Shown piece by piece: positions 55,421 through 64,000 of a stretch of DNA of 64,000 nt; the first letter of the stretch is position 1, and each line of letters begins with the position of its first letter. Source of the DNA: a bacterium (GTDB lineage: Bacteria > Verrucomicrobiota > Lentisphaeria > Victivallales > GWF2-38-69). The notes beneath the pieces are model-generated. The model was not told the DNA's origin. It saw only the letters and a list, made by a program, of their open reading frames with translations, and did not search any database. The DNA lies in assembly GCA_021781705.1 (NCBI GenBank), contig JAJXWI010000007.1:325-64324 (forward strand), in the 5' to 3' direction. A program made the position numbers and the translations under genes.

Positions 55421-56422
55421 TTATTTACCTGTAGCTACTTCTATAGCGACGGCTACTGAGACTGTTGCGCCAACCATGGGGTTGTTGCCCATCCCAATGA
55501 GCCCCATCATTTCTACATGCGCCGGGACTGAGGAAGAGCCTGCAAACTGAGCGTCAGAGTGCATTCTGCCCATTGTATCGGTCATTCCGTAAGAAGCAGG
55601 GCCCGCAGCCATATTGTCGGGATGAAGTGTTCTTCCTGTTCCTCCGCCTGAAGCGACAGAAAAATATTTAATTCCCAGTTCCGAAGTTTCTTTTTTATAT
55701 GTTCCTACGACAGGATGTTGGAATCTGGTGGGATTAGTTGAATTTCCTGTGATGGATACTCCCACTTTTTCATGATGCATTATAGCTACGCCTTCGCGTA
55801 CGTCGTCAGTGCCATAGCATCTTACTTTTGCTCTTTCGCCTGTGGAATATGCAATTTCCTTAACGATATCAAGTTTGCTCGTGTAGTAGTCAAACTTTGT
55901 TTTTACGTAGGTAAAACCATTCACTCTGGAAATGATCTGAGCGGCGTCTTTTCCCAGTCCGTTCAAAATTACTTTCAGAGGCGTTTTTCTTACTTTATTG
56001 GCTGAGTTAGCAATGCCGATCGCTCCTTCAGCTGCAGCAAATGATTCATGTCCTGCTACAAAAGCAAAACATTGCGTCTCTTCGCTTAGCAGCATTGCGC
56101 CGAGGTTGCCATGGCCGATCCCGACTTTTCTGTCATCAGCTACAGAACCAGGAATGCAAAAGGCTTGGAGCCCTTCCCCGATAGCCGTTGATGCCGCCGC
56201 CGCTTTAGTTATGCCTTTTTTGATTGCTATTGCTGCGCCTAAAATGTAAGCCCAGCATGCGTTTTCAAAGCATATGGGCTGAACATCTTTTACGATTGAT
56301 GCAACATCTATTCCCTTATCTGTGCATATTTTTTTCGCTTCTTCAAGTGAGGCGATGTTATACTTTTTCAGGACTTCATTAATCTTGTCTATTCTTCTTT
56401 CATATCCTTCAAACAGTGCCAT
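55421..56422 (-). CDS. GGGtGRT-family protein (conserved, function unknown)
   Basis: 333 aa containing the eponymous motif SVASGGGTGRTLHPD, paired with a NifU-like gene immediately upstream. Confidence 0.75.
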   Translation of the reverse strand: MALFEGYERRIDKINEVLKKYNIASLEEAKKICTDKGIDVASIVKDVQPICFENACWAYILGAAIAIKKGITKAAAASTAIGEGLQAFCIPGSVADDRKVGIGHGNLGAMLLSEETQCFAFVAGHESFAAAEGAIGIANSANKVRKTPLKVILNGLGKDAAQIISRVNGFTYVKTKFDYYTSKLDIVKEIAYSTGERAKVRCYGTDDVREGVAIMHHEKVGVSITGNSTNPTRFQHPVVGTYKKETSELGIKYFSVASGGGTGRTLHPDNMAAGPASYGMTDTMGRMHSDAQFAGSSSVPAHVEMMGLIGMGNNPMVGATVSVAVAIEVATGK

Positions 56423-56445
56423 TTTCTCTGATTCCTCTTTACTTG

Positions 56446-57138
56446 TTATTCTTTTCTCGGGTCAATGTACTTAACAGCTTCTTTGAAACGGCCATAAGTT
56501 CCGGTAGCTTTTTTTATAGCTTCTGATGATTCTGTGCCCTTCTTAATCATGTCCATCATCTTGCCGAAATGTATGAATTCGTAGCCGATAATTTCATCAT
56601 TTGCGTCAAGAGCAGTCCTTGTGACATAACCTTCTGCCATTTCAAGGTATCTGGGACCTTTGCTTACGGTACTGTACATGGTGCCAACCTGGCTTCTGAG
56701 CCCTTTCCCTAAATCTTCAAGCCCTGCACCGATAGGCAGTCCACCTTCAGTGAATGCTGTTTGGCTTCTCCCATAAGCTATTTGAAGGAATAGCTCTCTC
56801 ATTGCCGTGTTTATAGCATCGCAAACCAGATCTGTATTCAGCGCCTCAAGAATAGTTTTTCCTGTAAGTATTTCGGCTGCCATCGCTGCTGAATGGGTCA
56901 TTCCAGAACATCCGATAGTCTCTATCAGAGCTTCATGGATTATTCCATCTTTGATGTTTAGCGTAAGTTTGCAAGCTCCCTGTTGAGGGGCGCACCAGCC
57001 CACGCCATGTGTTAATCCGGAAATATCTTTTATTTCTTTTGCCTGTGTCCATTTTCCTTCCTGAGGAATTGGAGCCGGTCCATGGTTTGGTCCCTTGGCT
57101 ACACAAGTCATTTGTTCCACTTCATGAGAGTAAAGCAA
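56446..57138 (-). CDS. NifU/IscU-like N-terminal-domain protein with a C-terminal extension
   Basis: TTG start with AGGAGG 7 nt upstream. GVGWCAPQQGACKLTLNIKDGIIHEALIETIGCSGMTHSAAMAAEILTGKTILEAL shows the three-Cys scaffold pattern of IscU/NifU. Confidence 0.65.
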   Translation of the reverse strand: MLYSHEVEQMTCVAKGPNHGPAPIPQEGKWTQAKEIKDISGLTHGVGWCAPQQGACKLTLNIKDGIIHEALIETIGCSGMTHSAAMAAEILTGKTILEALNTDLVCDAINTAMRELFLQIAYGRSQTAFTEGGLPIGAGLEDLGKGLRSQVGTMYSTVSKGPRYLEMAEGYVTRTALDANDEIIGYEFIHFGKMMDMIKKGTESSEAIKKATGTYGRFKEAVKYIDPRKE

Positions 57139-57243
57139 TTTTAAGCCCTCCTTGTTTTGTTACCGTTTCGCCGCATGGTACAATTAAAAATATTGGATGA
57201 TTGAGTCCTTAAATTCTTAATTTGCAATTTATAATTTGTAATT

Positions 57244-57708
57244 TTACTCCGAGTATTCAGCCCAGCAGGTTGCCGTTTCCCAGACCCTTACACGTTCCAG
57301 GTATACTTTGCCGCTTATCTCATAAGGTGAGCCGTCTTTATTCGTATAGAATTTATTTCTAGCAAGTTCTGAGCTGATGTGTTTAAAGATTCTTTCGGCG
57401 ACAGACTCCGATGTTGGATCCTGTTTTTCAAAAGTTACGAGTCTATCGAAATTTTTTGAAAAATAGTCGTAGTGTTTTGATTCCGAATTGATGAGCATTG
57501 CGTGGTCAAACGAGTCAAGAAATTTTCCAAAGCCCGTTTTTAAAACCTGAAAATCGCAAACCATGTTATTTTTGTCAAGTTCCTTCGAGGCTAGAATAAT
57601 CTCTATCTTTCTGCTGTGCCCGTGCGGAGCGCGGCAATTGCTGGTATTGTTTTCGCTGGATAAAAAGTGCCCTGTTTCTATCCAGAAAGTTTTGCATATC
57701 CTGTACAT
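57244..57708 (-). CDS. queD: 6-carboxy-5,6,7,8-tetrahydropterin synthase (QueD/PTPS family)
   Basis: From the ATG at 57708: MYRICKTFWIETGHFL...CRAPHGHSRKIEI (CxxxHGH zinc and catalytic motif) and C-terminal VRVWETATCWAEY. Confidence 0.65.
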   Translation of the reverse strand: MYRICKTFWIETGHFLSSENNTSNCRAPHGHSRKIEIILASKELDKNNMVCDFQVLKTGFGKFLDSFDHAMLINSESKHYDYFSKNFDRLVTFEKQDPTSESVAERIFKHISSELARNKFYTNKDGSPYEISGKVYLERVRVWETATCWAEYSE

Positions 57709-57910
57709 AATACTAAATCCGATTGAAATTTCAATGTTTTTGTAAAATTGCACAATTAGCTGGTAATGTCAACATGCTCGATTATTTTTGTTGCTGGTTT
57801 TAGTATATGAAAATTTTAGAAAACAGGATTTTTTGGGGTATATTTAATATTGCTTATTTACGGAAGAATGGGAAATTACATATAAGAACAAATTTAAAGA
57901 AGGTTTTTTC

Positions 57911-59518
57911 ATGGACAACAAAGAGATAAAGAATAACGATAAAGAAGAAAAAGATAATCCAATTCCATTTGATGATATACAAAAACAAATTCAGGATGCT
58001 TTGAAGAATCTTGGCGCAAATTCATTTGTGATTCCGATACAGGCAAAACGGGCCGGGCATGAAAATAAACCGACGGAAGAAAAACCAGAGGATAGCTCTA
58101 AGAAAGTCCTGGAAATAATTAAAAATTTCAAGCTTAAGCCAAGAGAAGTTAAAGAGTATCTCGACAGATATGTTGTAAAACAGGAAGAAGCAAAAAAGGT
58201 TCTTTCCGTGTCAGTTTGCGATCATTACAATAACGTCAGAAGATGCATGGGGAAAAATGCTGATGTTACTTTGGAATACGCTAAACAGAATATCCTGCTG
58301 TTAGGGCCTACAGGCGTGGGCAAGACCTATCTGGTAAAATGTCTGGCGAATCTTATCGGGGTTCCGTTTGTAAAAGCTGACGCCACGAAATATTCCGCTA
58401 CAGGTTATGTAGGAAGCAACGTTGAAGACCTTGTCAGGGATCTTGTTAAAATAGCTGACGGCAATGTTGAGCTTGCCCAGTACGGGATCGTCTATATTGA
58501 TGAAATAGATAAAATTGCGGCAAGTACAGTAGATAGCGGACTCGATGTTTCCGGCAAAGGCGTTCAGATAAATCTTTTAAAGTTGATGGAAGATTCTGAT
58601 GTTAACTTGCAGAGCCAGACCGACATGCTCGGGCAGTTCGAATCTGTCATGGACGCAATGCATGGCAAAGGAAAAAATAAAAAGAGTACCATAAGTACGA
58701 AAAACATTCTTTTCATAGTAAGCGGGGCTTTTGAAAATCTGTCAGATATCATTAAAAAAAGAGTCTCGGGCGCGCAGATAGGATTTGGCAAGGACGGAGC
58801 GACAGAAAAAGAAAAATCTTTTTACTTGAAACAAAGTACTACGCCGGATTTTATAAAATTTGGGTTTGAGCCTGAATTTATCGGTAGATTGCCGGTGAGA
58901 GTTGCCTGCAACGAACTCTCTGCAGAAGACCTCGAGAAGGTTATGACAAATTCTGAGGGCAGTATCCTTAAACAATATGTTCATGATTTTGAAGGATATA
59001 ATATCAAGTTTGAAGTCGACGAAGAATCGATTTCTTTTATAGCAAAGGAAGCTTATAAACAGCAGACCGGCGCCCGCGGCATAATGACTGTTATGGAAGA
59101 AATATTTAGAAATTTTAAATATGAGCTTCCTTCTGTCGGGCTTACTAATTTTAAGGCTAATATTAAAACAGTTTCTGCCCCTGAAGAGAGTCTTAAAAAG
59201 TTAATATCAGAATCAAAGGATTATCATTGCGAAGCTTTGAAAAAAGATATTATCAAATTTTGCGAACAGTTTAAGTCTGAGAACGGGATTGTGCTCATTT
59301 TTAACAAACAGGCAGAAAAGGCTCTCATAGCAGAAGCTCTTTCTACAGGAAAAACTGTTTATACTTTGTGCTGGGCAAAATTCAAAGATTATCCGTACGG
59401 ACTGAAGCTCATTTCCGGTAAAATTAAAAGTAGTACTCTCAATATTACCGCAAAAATGGTCAAGTCTCCAGAACAGGAACTTTCCAATCTTATCTCTGCA
59501 AAATATAAGAAAACATGA
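57911..59518 (+). CDS. ClpX-like AAA+ unfoldase paralog lacking the N-terminal zinc-binding domain, with a ~130-aa C-terminal extension
   Basis: [25 protein letters not shown], Walker [13 protein letters not shown], pore loop [10 protein letters not shown], Walker [11 protein letters not shown], and an IGF-like AQIGFGKDG. These are collinear with ClpX. The N-terminus is a Lys/Glu-rich segment without the C4 zinc ribbon. No clpP is adjacent. Confidence 0.7.
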
Positions 59519-59735
59519 CCATATTTTAGCAGACGCTTCTCCCTTTACAGTTTTCCCTAATTGTCGTATAATATCGTTTGACTAACTTTCACAAATTGGT
59601 GTAGAGATACACTAATAGGAAAACAAAAGACGTTATCTCTAAATTATGGGAGCGGATAAAATTATCGTATAGGAAATTGTATTTTGAGTCATTAAAAGTC
59701 CCGGCAAAGCCGGCTAAGTTCAAAAATTCTTTAAG

Positions 59736-62138
59736 ATGATTAATAAAATTACAAAACTCAATAAAATTGGAAAATTCTCTTCTATCAGTCAAGAGAAAGC
59801 TTTTCAATATGGCGGTAAGGGGCAAAATTGTAATATTGTTTTTGGATTTAACGGATCAGGTAAGACTACCTTATCAAACGCAATTTCATTTTTTGCTGAT
59901 AACTCATTTATCAGCGAGGAAGAAAAAAAGGAAGTATTTGACGATATAAAAAATAGCAACGATTCTTTCGTAGAATTGGATTTACAAGGCAATTCAAAAA
60001 TAAAATATCCAGCTAATAGATTACATAGCAAAAGTATTTATATTTTCAATTCTAATTTTGTAGCTACCCATGTTTTTAATGGCACAAAAGGAAAATTGAA
60101 GAAATTTTCAAACATAGGCGGCGAGATTAAAAATAAAGAAATTGACAATATCAATGAGCAAATCGGCAAACTTGATGAAGAAAAGAGAAAACTAGAGAGC
60201 GAAAATATAAATCTCGATGAAAAGCATGTAGAAATAACAAAAATTAGAAGCGCAAATTTTGGAAAAACATTAACCGATAAAAATAAAAGACTTCAAGCCC
60301 AAAATTTAAATAATGCTCAACTGCCAAATGATACTATTGAAAATTTGGAAACAGAACTTGCCACACTTTCTGCTGATTATGACTTAAGCAAGAAACATAC
60401 AGATCTAGATGTCGATCTCGGAGAATTACGACAGCTTACTTTTGGGTTATTGTCTTTGGATATTCCAAAAATAGGCGAACTTTTATCAAAGAATATCCAA
60501 CAGCTTTCAACAGAAGCTTTAGAAAGAAAGATAAAAGAGGTTCAAAATCTCTTTCCAAATGATCAACACAAGCATAGCGTCGAGAAATGGTTTAGATTTG
60601 GTAAAGATATTTTGGAAAGTACACGTGAAAGAGATAGCAAACATTGTCCAATTTGTAATACAGACATTTCGGCAAAGCTAGACTTCGTTCTGAAAGATTA
60701 TCAGGGCTATTTTGACGAAAGCTATGAAAATTTTATTGAAGAATTAAAACAGAAGATTGATGATATATCTGCGAATATTATTTCTATCGAACAATATGAA
60801 CAAAATGCAGTAAAACTAGAACAAGTACATATCAAATATGAGAAATTATTGAGAAGCTATTCTTTCGATAAATATGATTTTAAAAGTGTTAAAACAGATT
60901 TAATTGAGCTAGAAAAAATTTTAAAATCAAAAAATGATAGTGTTCAAAATGGTTTTTCAAAACCTAAAAATATTGAAAATAATATAACTGCTTTGAATAA
61001 TGCCCTGTCAGCTTTTCAGGCACTTAAGAACAATATTTTAAATCATTTAGAATCAAAGGAGTTAGATACTCATACTATTGAAGGACAGATCAGGCAGACC
61101 TATAACAAGATTATCATCTTAGAATTGAACCAAGCCGATGAATTAGATGCTTTGAGAAAATATAAAAATAACAAAGCTCGAATTGGAGTTATCGTAGATA
61201 GTAGAGAGCATGGGCTTCCTTTTTGGAAGAACAAACTGCTATCAGAGTTGAAAAAGATTAAAGCCGAATCAAAAAGCATTTCTAACTATCTCAACAAAAT
61301 GGGAATAAACCATTTTGATATTGATATCAATGAGGAAAAGCAAGATGAAAACATAATAATCAAATACAAGGACTCAGCAAGTGAAAGGAACAAACTCAAA
61401 AATTGTCTTAGTGACGGCGAAAAAACCGCACTGGCGTTTGCTTATTTTTTAAGTAAATTTGAAAATGAAATAAACCCAGAGGCAAAAATCAAAGAAGCTG
61501 TTATTGTTATTGATGATCCTATTTCAAGTCTTGATGATAACAGACTATACAGCACTGCGCACTTAATTTGGTGTAACTTTGAAGAAGTTAAACAGTTAAT
61601 CGTTTTGAGCCACAATTTCCTTTTCCTAAAATTTTTCAATTCTTTTACAGGGAAAGTAAATTGTCTGTTCATAGATCAAGAAAAAATATACGAACTTCCC
61701 GACGAATTGAAAAATTTTGAAACCCCTTATTTCTATATGCTCCGAAGTGTTATTGATTATCTTGATCAAGATAATCAAAATGTAACTTATAACGAAGCAA
61801 AAAGATATTTACCAAATTTCATACGCCGGGTTTTGGAAACATTCCTATCCTTCAAGTTTTCAAGAATAGCAAATAAGACAGACGGATATAGAAGTCCGGG
61901 GTTAAATGAATTTGATGACAATATTGATAATACGGATATGGAAGATAAAGTTAAGAAAGAATTGAAGGGAAAAATTGCTGAGATTAACCGAATTGCAAAT
62001 GATCATTCACACGGCAACGCACACCACACACAAGAGAGTTTTTACATTTCCGAAACTGATCTAAAAGCACTTGCCAAGAACGCTATTTATATAATTGAAA
62101 CAATGGATAATTTGCACAAAACTAGTTTTGTTAATTAA
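59736..62138 (+). CDS. RloC-like anticodon nuclease candidate: AAA_13-type ABC ATPase with a long coiled-coil insert carrying a CxxC hook and a PrrC-type C-terminal nuclease region
   Basis: 800 aa with Walker A GFNGSGKTT, a ~400-aa heptad-rich insert containing WFRFGKDIL...HCPICNT, ABC signature LSDGEKTALAF, Walker B AVIVIDDPISSLD, D-loop/His LIVLSHN, and a C-terminal LPNFIRRVLETFLSF (R-x3-E) plus NDHSHGNAHH, as in PrrC/RloC ACNase domains. Confidence 0.6.
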   Translation: MINKITKLNKIGKFSSISQEKAFQYGGKGQNCNIVFGFNGSGKTTLSNAISFFADNSFISEEEKKEVFDDIKNSNDSFVELDLQGNSKIKYPANRLHSKSIYIFNSNFVATHVFNGTKGKLKKFSNIGGEIKNKEIDNINEQIGKLDEEKRKLESENINLDEKHVEITKIRSANFGKTLTDKNKRLQAQNLNNAQLPNDTIENLETELATLSADYDLSKKHTDLDVDLGELRQLTFGLLSLDIPKIGELLSKNIQQLSTEALERKIKEVQNLFPNDQHKHSVEKWFRFGKDILESTRERDSKHCPICNTDISAKLDFVLKDYQGYFDESYENFIEELKQKIDDISANIISIEQYEQNAVKLEQVHIKYEKLLRSYSFDKYDFKSVKTDLIELEKILKSKNDSVQNGFSKPKNIENNITALNNALSAFQALKNNILNHLESKELDTHTIEGQIRQTYNKIIILELNQADELDALRKYKNNKARIGVIVDSREHGLPFWKNKLLSELKKIKAESKSISNYLNKMGINHFDIDINEEKQDENIIIKYKDSASERNKLKNCLSDGEKTALAFAYFLSKFENEINPEAKIKEAVIVIDDPISSLDDNRLYSTAHLIWCNFEEVKQLIVLSHNFLFLKFFNSFTGKVNCLFIDQEKIYELPDELKNFETPYFYMLRSVIDYLDQDNQNVTYNEAKRYLPNFIRRVLETFLSFKFSRIANKTDGYRSPGLNEFDDNIDNTDMEDKVKKELKGKIAEINRIANDHSHGNAHHTQESFYISETDLKALAKNAIYIIETMDNLHKTSFVN

Positions 62139-62246
62139 ATGATCACTCACATCCACCCGAACCGAACAAACAGACAAAAAACTGATGGGAATTTTCGAGC
62201 AAAAAATAAAAGAAACCATATCTAATACTATGGAGTGAATAAAATT

Positions 62247-63110
62247 ATGCCAGATCCGATAACAACAGCTTTAGCTTTAAGTGGTGCAATAGGTAGTGCA
62301 GCAAAAGTTGCAAACACACCATTATTTAAAACATTCATTGATGGAATTACTGGTTTTAAGATAAGTCAATGGGCGGCGGAAGGCGAGGTTAGAAAAAAGC
62401 TAATACTTGATGATTATGAAAAAGCAAAGAACTCTGGAATTATTGGTATTCAATATATTTCGGCACTAAGGGAACTTACTAATTTAATAAATACTGCGGT
62501 TAAATCTTCAAAATATGTAATTCCAGACAAGCCGAATGATATAAAAATGGATAATGATTTCTTCTGGAATACTATTGAACATTCTAAGAGTATCTCCAAT
62601 GAAGAAATGCAGGAATTGATAGCGAAAATTATTGCTGGCGAATACAATACACCCGGAACTTATTCGATGAGTACTTTGCAAATTATCAAAATGCTTGGGA
62701 AGAATGAGTTGGAACTATTTGAAAGAATTTGCAGTCTTCTGATTAATAAGGTTCAAATACCAGAGAAATTATTTTCCTTGTCGGACTATGATAGAGATTT
62801 CATAGTAGAACTTCAAATTGGTTTTAGCAAGTTTCAAGCATTACAGAGTTTAGGATTGTTTTTACCAAGTGACATGGGAAGAAAAATAAAAAATCCAAAG
62901 AAGGAAACATTTGAACTTACATATTTTGACAAAATTTTTTTATTTATCCACGAGAATGAGAATTACCTAGTAATAGATATTCCGAGGTTTTATGAATTAA
63001 CAATGGTAGGCAAACAAATATTGAAACATCTTAACCCGCAATATAATGATAAGTATTATGCCTGGCTGAAGGCAAACTATAAAGTCCCAAACTATAAAAT
63101 TCTCGAATAG
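62247..63110 (+). CDS. DUF2806-like protein
   Basis: The ATG at 62247 is preceded by GGAG (the ORF track uses the GTG at 62235). The central DNDFFWNTIEHSKSISNEEMQELIAKIIAGEYNTPGTYSMSTLQIIKMLGKNELELFERICSL matches my recollection of the DUF2806 core (D.dW...f...a..vSdeemq.lWakiLAGE...PG.fS.rTL..l..L...Ea..F). Confidence 0.5.
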   Translation: MPDPITTALALSGAIGSAAKVANTPLFKTFIDGITGFKISQWAAEGEVRKKLILDDYEKAKNSGIIGIQYISALRELTNLINTAVKSSKYVIPDKPNDIKMDNDFFWNTIEHSKSISNEEMQELIAKIIAGEYNTPGTYSMSTLQIIKMLGKNELELFERICSLLINKVQIPEKLFSLSDYDRDFIVELQIGFSKFQALQSLGLFLPSDMGRKIKNPKKETFELTYFDKIFLFIHENENYLVIDIPRFYELTMVGKQILKHLNPQYNDKYYAWLKANYKVPNYKILE

Positions 63111-63544
63111 TTACTGATCAAGGGATATTTGATTATTTGCCTATTGAGCCTCGGTAAAATTGGTAAAGGTGGGATCCCTCGCCGAGGGCGACGAATTGAA
63201 ATGGACGGCTACGGCGAGCCGTTCCTACCCCATTTTTCAAAAAACTCTGTTATATAGCTGGAGTAAAGAACATGGAAACAACCAAAATTGCTTTGTTTAA
63301 AAGCAAAAAGATAAAAAAGTAACCTCAAAAGATTAATAAAAATGAATGATAAAAACTGTACGTACTGCAGGATAATTTCAGGAAAGATAGAAGCGAATCT
63401 TCCCGACTTCGGCGGTAAAAAGGCAAGATTAAAGAAATCCAAGCTCAAGCTTGTGAAAAGCTCTTTTGTAGTGCCTAGCTAGTCGCAATTATTATACTTT
63501 CTTTTTATTAAATATTGCATTGCTTGTTAGTATCTGATAGATTA

Positions 63545-64000
63545 ATGGCAAAGCAAAAGGAAGATAAAATGTTTGTCAGAGTAAAAACCACGCCGAATAG
63601 TCCAAGACAATCAGTGCAGCTTGTAGAGAGCGTTCGCGATGGTCAAAAGATAAAGCAAAAGATAGTAAGGCATGTGGGGATAGCCTTTGATGAAGACGAG
63701 CTCAAGAGACTAAAAGATCTTGCTGAGTACATAAAGACGAAGATAGAAAATGAAAGGGAGCCTTCATTGTTTCGATCCGAAGACTTAGCTGAAATGGCCA
63801 TAAAAAGTAGAGACAAGAAAGAAGAAGTTCCTGATAATGTAAAGCTTAAAGAAGTTGAAGCCGTTCAGGAGGTAATAACAGGAATACACGATATTTACGG
63901 GCAAGTATATAAAGAAATAGGCTTTGAACAGGCGATATCAAGACCGGCCTCGCATGAGAATGCTTTGAAGAAGCTTTATCACATTGTTATGGGAAGGATA
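63545..64000 (+). mobile_element. IS1634-family (IS4-like) transposase gene, 5' part; runs off the right edge
   Basis: Open to the window end, so absent from the ORF track. MAKQKEDKMFVRVKTTPNSPRQSVQLVESVRDGQKIKQKIVRHVGIAFDEDELKRLKDL... resembles the conserved IS1634 N-terminus (MF.R.k.....y.qiVESyR..GKvrQ..v..lG). IS ends are not identifiable within the window. Confidence 0.5.

Follow-up and report, generated by a model that had tools for sequence, protein, structure and literature searches.

The window analyzed here is a stretch of 64,000 nucleotides (nt) from contig JAJXWI010000007.1 (assembly GCA_021781705.1) of a bacterium of the Victivallales. Near its right end it carries two adjacent genes on the plus strand, one encoding an 800-amino acid (aa) protein of the type of RloC, an anticodon nuclease, and the other encoding a protein of the DUF2806 family. 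These are most probably two single-gene defence candidates, acquired horizontally and independent of each other, that adjoin in a variable hotspot and are neighbours by accident. The original prediction had proposed a two-gene defence module, a reading that was not borne out: no DUF2806 gene was found in 86 RloC-like loci, no RloC-like gene in about 35 DUF2806 loci, and a sister lineage has the DUF2806 gene without rloC. The two genes are the following.

59736..62138, plus strand: rloC orthologue, 800 aa (open reading frame, profile matches, alignment, AlphaFold2 (AF2) model, Foldseek)
62247..63110, plus strand (alternative GTG start at 62235): DUF2806-family gene, 287 aa (Pfam match, alignment, AF2 model)

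Linkage of the two families and the site in a sister lineage

RloC-like loci were collected from representative genomes and metagenomes. Scans with single-protein patterns gave 1 and 6 loci in the genome and metagenome collections, respectively, and an alignment-based scan, used instead, gave 80. The set comprised 86 loci (21–83% identity), with about 6 kb of flank per side where the contig allowed. The DUF2806 hidden Markov model (HMM) matched none of them under genetic codes 11 and 25, nor did it match the contigs of the closest rloC orthologue. In the other direction, about 35 DUF2806 loci were assembled, 31 distinct ones from representative genomes together with the metagenomic contigs of the four closest homologues and of P0043; tblastn and an RloC HMM detected no RloC-like gene in those outside the window species. 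Recurrent linkage of the two families, on which the original prediction had made the module depend, was seen in neither direction. The pair itself was confined to one population, represented by six contigs with 100% identity to the window across the two genes.

Neighbours of DUF2806 genes were heterogeneous and included housekeeping genes (obg, aminotransferase, dnaX, SDR, Ddl) as well as genes of mobile or defence type (integrase, resolvase, KilA-N, Bro-N, HsdR, HNH, DUF3800), with no recurrent neighbour in the roughly 35 loci. The 3' neighbours of rloC orthologues were equally diverse (Bact_hydrolase, DUF2130, DnaB, AAA_21). KilA-N/Bro-N was considered as a partner of DUF2806 and rejected: of the 19 loci in which DUF2806 is followed by a gene on the same strand, 3 have KilA-N/Bro-N there, too small a number to establish a partner. 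Bro-N/KilA-N proteins of about 270–290 aa are encoded 3' of DUF2806 at L021 8948–9805, L004 1869–2684 and L139 5936–6754 (L numbers designate the loci compared); the DUF2806 protein is the same in L004 and L139, leaving at most two independent loci, the sole hint of recurrence. An 804-aa protein encoded 8 nt 5' of the DUF2806 gene in a Saccharibacteria metagenome-assembled genome (MAG; L121 3582–5993) was rejected as an RloC: it is NPPY methylase-like, has no Walker A motif, and gave no Pfam match and no similarity to RloC.

The closest homologue of the DUF2806 protein (76% aa identity) is encoded on two contigs of the sister lineage, L021 and L022. At this site were found genes for a clpX-like protein (83% aa identity), DUF2806, Bro-N, HIT (85%) and PIN-PhoH (90%), and no gene of AAA_13, the Pfam family matched by the RloC-like protein, was present in either contig. 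Nucleotide homology between the window and L021 extends over 57896–59548, is broken over 59549–62201, the segment containing rloC, and resumes over 62202–63144; in L021, 334 nt of unrelated sequence stand in place of the 2.65-kb rloC segment. Since DUF2806 occupies the same site without rloC in L021, rloC was gained or lost on its own. The 334 nt (L021 7623–7956) are G+C-rich and contain several strong hairpins, e.g. CCACGGGCGTTAGCCCGTGG; they had no Rfam match and could be an element resembling a miniature inverted-repeat transposable element or a repetitive extragenic palindrome.

As had been noted from the sequence, the DUF2806 gene follows rloC on the same strand at about 100 nt. The gap measured 96–108 nt, and no terminator-like hairpin was found within it. 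An Rfam search of window positions 57000–64000 returned no RNA element. Three features bear on the origin of this arrangement.

59544..59572, plus strand: promoter-like site TTTACA-17-TATAAT, 11/12, just past the clpX-like stop codon; the best in the region
59601..59665, plus strand: left copy of the DUF2806 leader, about 65 nt, homologous to L021 7939–8002, at the left edge of the rloC insertion
62203..62248, plus strand: right copy of the DUF2806 leader, the resident one, which continues into the ATG; L021 homology resumes at 62202

The 3' 47 nt of the left leader copy match window positions 62203–62248, and the copy ends ...AAATTAT exactly where the DUF2806 ATG would follow. This direct repeat scored 46, versus 27 ± 4.5 (maximum 42) for shuffled sequences, and the comparison with L021 scored 60. 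The promoter-like site, which lies to the left of the upstream leader copy, has a recognizable counterpart in L021 (TTTACT..TACAAT). On this evidence, rloC probably inserted into the leader of the DUF2806 gene, separating this resident gene from its own promoter, and would thereby have taken over that promoter; co-transcription of both genes from the captured promoter is a probable by-product. Insertion behind a captured promoter explains the operon-like appearance of the pair without functional coupling.

The DUF2806 gene

All homologues begin at the position of the ATG at 62247, not at that of the GTG at 62235. The assignment of the 287-aa product to DUF2806, proposed at the outset, was confirmed by a Pfam match of 5e-21 and 75.9 bits, versus a cut-off of 24.5; the domain was found in 36 of 36 aligned homologues, and the product also matched TIGR03899, below the cut-off of that model. 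Its core, DNDFFWN...SNEEMQELIAKIIAGEYN...LELFE, is nearly invariant across homologues. The AF2 model was confident (predicted local distance difference test score (pLDDT) 84.7, predicted template modelling score 0.82). Foldseek comparison of the model with the PDB gave no match with E below 1, and comparison with BFVD a single one, to an unnamed phage protein (E 8.7e-11). No PADLOC or PHROGs model matched the protein. A transmembrane N-terminus was considered and rejected, as hydrophobicity is too low by hand calculation and the segment is polar in homologues.

Relatives number in the hundreds, at 44–76% identity, and occur in Bacteroidota, in many lineages of Patescibacteria (Saccharibacteria, Peregrinibacteria/Peribacteria, Gracilibacteria, Paceibacteria, Absconditabacteria) and in one Brocadiaceae MAG; this patchy distribution across phyla indicates horizontal transfer. 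Members of the subfamily (L001–L014, L110–L148) are usually solitary, often amid housekeeping genes of small Patescibacteria genomes. A 493-aa open reading frame at L134 5887–7365 joins DUF2806 and NUDIX domains and is either a fusion or a gene-calling artefact.

The functional literature on Pfam DUF2806 consists solely of a preprint on Vibrio cholerae integron cassettes (bioRxiv 10.1101/2024.07.02.601686), which describes Belisama, a single gene of the superintegron with a DUF2806 domain that is said to be distantly related to Abi-alpha. Belisama protects against phage, with unrecoverable lysis of the culture at high multiplicity of infection, as in abortive infection (Abi), and is toxic when overexpressed (same preprint). 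The window gene shares with Belisama the Pfam domain and the single-gene habit: Belisama is patchily distributed over many genera, and the family of the window gene was solitary in the roughly 35 loci. It differs in that its subfamily occurs in Bacteroidota and Patescibacteria, not in Pseudomonadota. By analogy with Belisama, the DUF2806 protein is probably an effector that works alone, either toxic or causing abortive infection, and would act as an Abi-type effector separate from RloC.

It is rather unlikely that the subfamily is not anti-phage at all and serves some other conserved cellular or mobile-element function. Such a role would suit its unusual conservation over the range of phyla given above, the frequency of housekeeping flanks (obg, aminotransferase, dnaX, Ddl) and the lack of any PADLOC or PHROGs match. 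It accords less well with the Pfam family shared with Belisama, which was tested by experiment, and with the patchy spread and low G+C content, which point to horizontal transfer. Moreover, an integrase, resolvase, KilA-N, HsdR or HNH gene sometimes adjoins DUF2806, and in related strains the hotspot holds PhD/ParE, PIN-PhoH, DUF3800 and Bro-N genes.

The RloC-like protein and its usual partners

RloC was defined by the motifs of an ATP-binding cassette (ABC) ATPase, an inserted coiled coil with a CX2C zinc hook at its centre, a length of 658–897 aa, and a C-proximal Arg-X3-Glu-X36-52-His motif in which Ser often precedes the His (PMC2610378). The ATPase motifs, a helical insert with CxxC, the Arg-Glu-His triad and a size within this range (800 aa) were all present in the window protein, and the motifs quoted in the original prediction were located where it had placed them.

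59844..59870, plus strand: Walker A, GFNGSGKTT, aa 37–45 (motif scan, alignment)
60642..60662, plus strand: HCPICNT, aa 303–309, zinc-hook-like CxxC near the middle of the helical insert, in a non-helical break
61407..61439, plus strand: ABC signature, LSDGEKTALAF, aa 558–568 (motif scan, alignment)
61500..61535, plus strand: Walker B/D-loop, VIVIDDPISSLD, aa 589–600 (motif scan, alignment)
61605–61616, plus strand: H-loop, LSHN, after the Walker B/D-loop
61824..62015, plus strand: anticodon-nuclease triad region, R697-x3-E701 ... S758-H759 (motif as defined in PMC2610378)

The C-terminal region contains RRVLE at aa 697–701 and NDHSHG at aa 755–760. Conservation was assessed in an alignment of 27 orthologue sequences, in which the ATPase residues G37/G42/K43/T44/T45, E562–A565, D593/D594/P595 and H626, the hook residues C304, P305 and C307, and the triad R697, E701 and H759 were invariant, and S758 nearly so. 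In the AF2 model (pLDDT 78.9), aa 133–521 are almost wholly helical, corresponding to an insert of about 390 aa, with CPIC in a break at 298–314. Foldseek related the model to SMC, Rad50 and cohesin heads with coiled coils, to Lamassu LmuB and to PtuA of retron Ec83; a search of the PDB with the RloC profile gave weak Rad50 matches, and searches with single sequences gave no match for either the RloC-like or the DUF2806 protein. The rloC coding sequence also contains a perfect 26-nt palindrome, TTGATTATCTTGA|TCAAGATAATCAA, at window positions 61753–61778.

Profile searches, which gave significant matches for both families as anticipated, placed aa 31–768 of the protein in Pfam AAA_13 (1.9e-58) and aa 492–706 in the PADLOC PrrC model (2.6e-16). 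Several PADLOC PDC-S06 models matched from end to end, the best at 2.1e-47 with aa 1–792 on positions 1–773 of the 790 of the model. PDC-S06 is a computational candidate class of single-gene phage defence, and, with these full-length matches, the gene already figures in PADLOC as a stand-alone candidate. A database search yielded about 100 full-length relatives (45–78% identity) from Patescibacteria, Ignavibacteria, Bacilli, the PVC group, Alphaproteobacteria and others, several bearing the JGI name 'wobble nucleotide-excising tRNase'. By its sequence, the 800-aa protein is an RloC orthologue of the ABC-ATPase/zinc-hook/anticodon-nuclease type, and its gene is an ordinary member of a known family, already covered by the PDC-S06 models.

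The likeness to the prototype, RloC of Geobacillus kaustophilus, extends over the ABC motifs, the CxxC helical insert, the R-x3-E...(S)H triad and the size; moreover, RloC may exist without a linked restriction-modification (R-M) system, and the G. kaustophilus gene also adjoins an insertion sequence (IS). PrrC of the Escherichia coli EcoprrI locus shares an ABC ATPase domain at the N-terminus, the C-terminal anticodon-nuclease domain of HEPN type with its Arg-Glu-His triad, and location of its gene in an R-M operon, as is the case for close orthologues of the window rloC. The nuclease domain of the RloC/PrrC family belongs to the HEPN superfamily (PMC3710099). However, PrrC has 341–416 aa and no coiled-coil/zinc-hook insert, and it is always encoded within a type Ic hsd locus, whereas the window protein has 800 aa with the insert and its gene has no hsd neighbours. 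PrrC was ruled out as the identity of the window protein because the insert is present and the gene is not within an hsd locus. Rad50, SMC, LmuB and PtuA share the architecture of head plus coiled coil, but lack a C-terminal anticodon-nuclease domain and have separate nuclease partners.

As described in PMC2610378 and PMC3458546, RloC cuts the tRNA wobble nucleotide out, and its anticodon nuclease is controlled by a DNA-dependent ATPase and a zinc hook. By homology to G. kaustophilus RloC, the C-terminal anticodon nuclease of the window protein would be held inactive by its Rad50-like ATPase and zinc hook until switched on by DNA ends or DNA damage arising in infection; the active enzyme would then excise the tRNA wobble nucleotide and stop translation.

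RloC in general is described in PMC2610378 and PMC3458546 as rarely linked to R-M systems. The clade of the window orthologue differs: in 10 of 14 informative loci (at least 60% identity), an R-M gene lies directly 5' of rloC on the same strand, separated by 2–15 nt in nine loci and by 487 nt in one. The partners are of several kinds. Type I HsdR was found in L036 and in L053 (50% identity); a ResIII/HsdR_N helicase with an N6_Mtase-Methylase_S fusion in L031, L033 and L149; an AlwI endonuclease with an N6_N4 methylase in L027; and a Dam-like methylase in L024. A helix-turn-helix gene precedes the R-M genes in L149/L150. The gene rloC is the last of an R-M operon in L031, L033, L036, L027, L024, L025, L026, L035, L043, L053 and L149/L150. 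In the window, relatives of ten R-M query proteins from related loci were sought and none was found, in agreement with the initial remark that hsd genes are missing nearby. The window rloC is an orphan of a clade normally attached to R-M genes; by analogy, such an orphan copy can still be functional.

That this orphan is instead a decaying or inert relic left by the loss of its R-M system, so that only the DUF2806 gene, or neither, would function, is quite improbable. The R-M linkage of most close orthologues speaks for decay, as do the eroding surroundings, with a piece of a HIT gene, a Bro-N remnant and a split IS, and according to the 2008 paper, certain RloC orthologues may be inactive where the genome offers no suitable R-M system (PMC2610378). 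Against it, the open reading frame has its full length of 800 aa, retains every invariant catalytic and ATPase residue, and is identical over six independent contigs; an R-M system encoded outside the window could also act in trans, the R-M search having covered the window only.

The variable hotspot and possible coupling of the two genes

The pair is more AT-rich than its surroundings, as originally stated, with a G+C content of 30.8% for rloC and 32.3% for the DUF2806 gene versus 37.8% for the whole window and 39.3% for the upstream 9.5 kb. Downstream of it, the truncated genes and IS1634-like transposase that had been recognized beforehand could be specified as follows.

63250..63312, plus strand: Bro-N remnant (5' end and upstream region), homologous to L021 8922–8988
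63342..63403, plus strand: initial 62 nt of a HIT-family gene that is cut here but whole in L015, a contig of the same species
63569..64000, plus strand: N-terminal part of an IS1634-family transposase gene (NF033559), running past the window end

In L016, a longer contig, the transposase gene is split into open reading frames of 289 and 126 aa and is thus degenerate. In both the window and L016, HIT is truncated at 63403; the degenerate IS1634 comes next, and then the synteny changes (chorismate-binding, YicC, DNA_pol_B). In L015, the DUF2806 gene is followed 3' by intact HIT, PhD/ParE, PIN-PhoH and PDDEXK_3 genes, and in the sister lineage the hotspot holds Bro-N, HIT, DUF3800, PIN-PhoH and 23S_rRNA_IVP. 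The locus is a small, eroding, variable islet between the clpX-like and HIT genes. The defence-island context that had been suggested fits such an islet, and says nothing about functional pairing. Farther upstream, at 55421–57138 on the minus strand, lie the genes for a GGGtGRT-family protein (333 aa) and, preceding it, a 230-aa protein that had no Pfam match; a QueD/PTPS gene lies downstream (57244–57753). This conserved block is unrelated to rloC and DUF2806.

Several observations weigh against two independent defence genes that met by accident. The E701–H759 spacing of the RloC-like protein is 57 residues, 5 past the range of 36–52 in the RloC set of 2008 (PMC2610378). The window DUF2806 subfamily is tied to Belisama at the level of the Pfam family only, and the Abi_alpha signal among DUF2806 members was marginal (2 of 36, E 0.013). 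The direct-repeat evidence for insertion is moderate (z about 4), and the flank survey reaches 6–8 kb, many contigs being short. Finally, the presence of one good promoter-like site upstream and of no terminator between the genes makes co-transcription probable, and functional interplay of rloC and DUF2806 thereby possible.

Such interplay is the core of the idea that RloC and DUF2806 form a dedicated two-gene module, with the DUF2806 protein acting as a regulator, sensor or antitoxin-like silencer in place of an R-M system. The arrangement on one strand with a short gap and probably a single promoter, the complete conservation of the pair over the six contigs of its population, and the fact that the rloC clade usually has a cis partner that is missing in the window would all suit it. 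Nevertheless, a dedicated module is very improbable. The two genes co-occurred nowhere else in the survey, and the sister lineage has DUF2806 at this site unaccompanied by rloC, the indel being limited to 59549–62201, so that there is no joint gain or loss. The partners of rloC sit upstream at gaps of 2–15 nt, not downstream; the DUF2806 protein Belisama acts alone and is itself toxic (bioRxiv 10.1101/2024.07.02.601686); and RloC carries its own internal silencing switch, which, in the words of PMC3458546, allows transfer 'without an external silencer'. Also very improbable is a co-option of the DUF2806 protein, in this lineage only, as external silencer or sensor of an rloC that has lost its R-M partner; if true, it would represent a young, lineage-specific toxin/regulator pair arisen from an accidental operon fusion.

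With the two genes regarded as independent candidates, little is new in the locus itself: a candidate two-gene system has been resolved into a known nuclease (RloC/PDC-S06) and a gene of a known family (DUF2806/Belisama-like). The locus offers a clean example of a defence gene that probably entered the leader of another and took over its promoter. For the rloC clade, coupling to several kinds of R-M systems is tight, tighter than the general description of RloC in the literature. The DUF2806 subfamily, conserved, mobile across phyla and with a predicted fold that has no solved relative, is a reasonable target for studies of structure and function.

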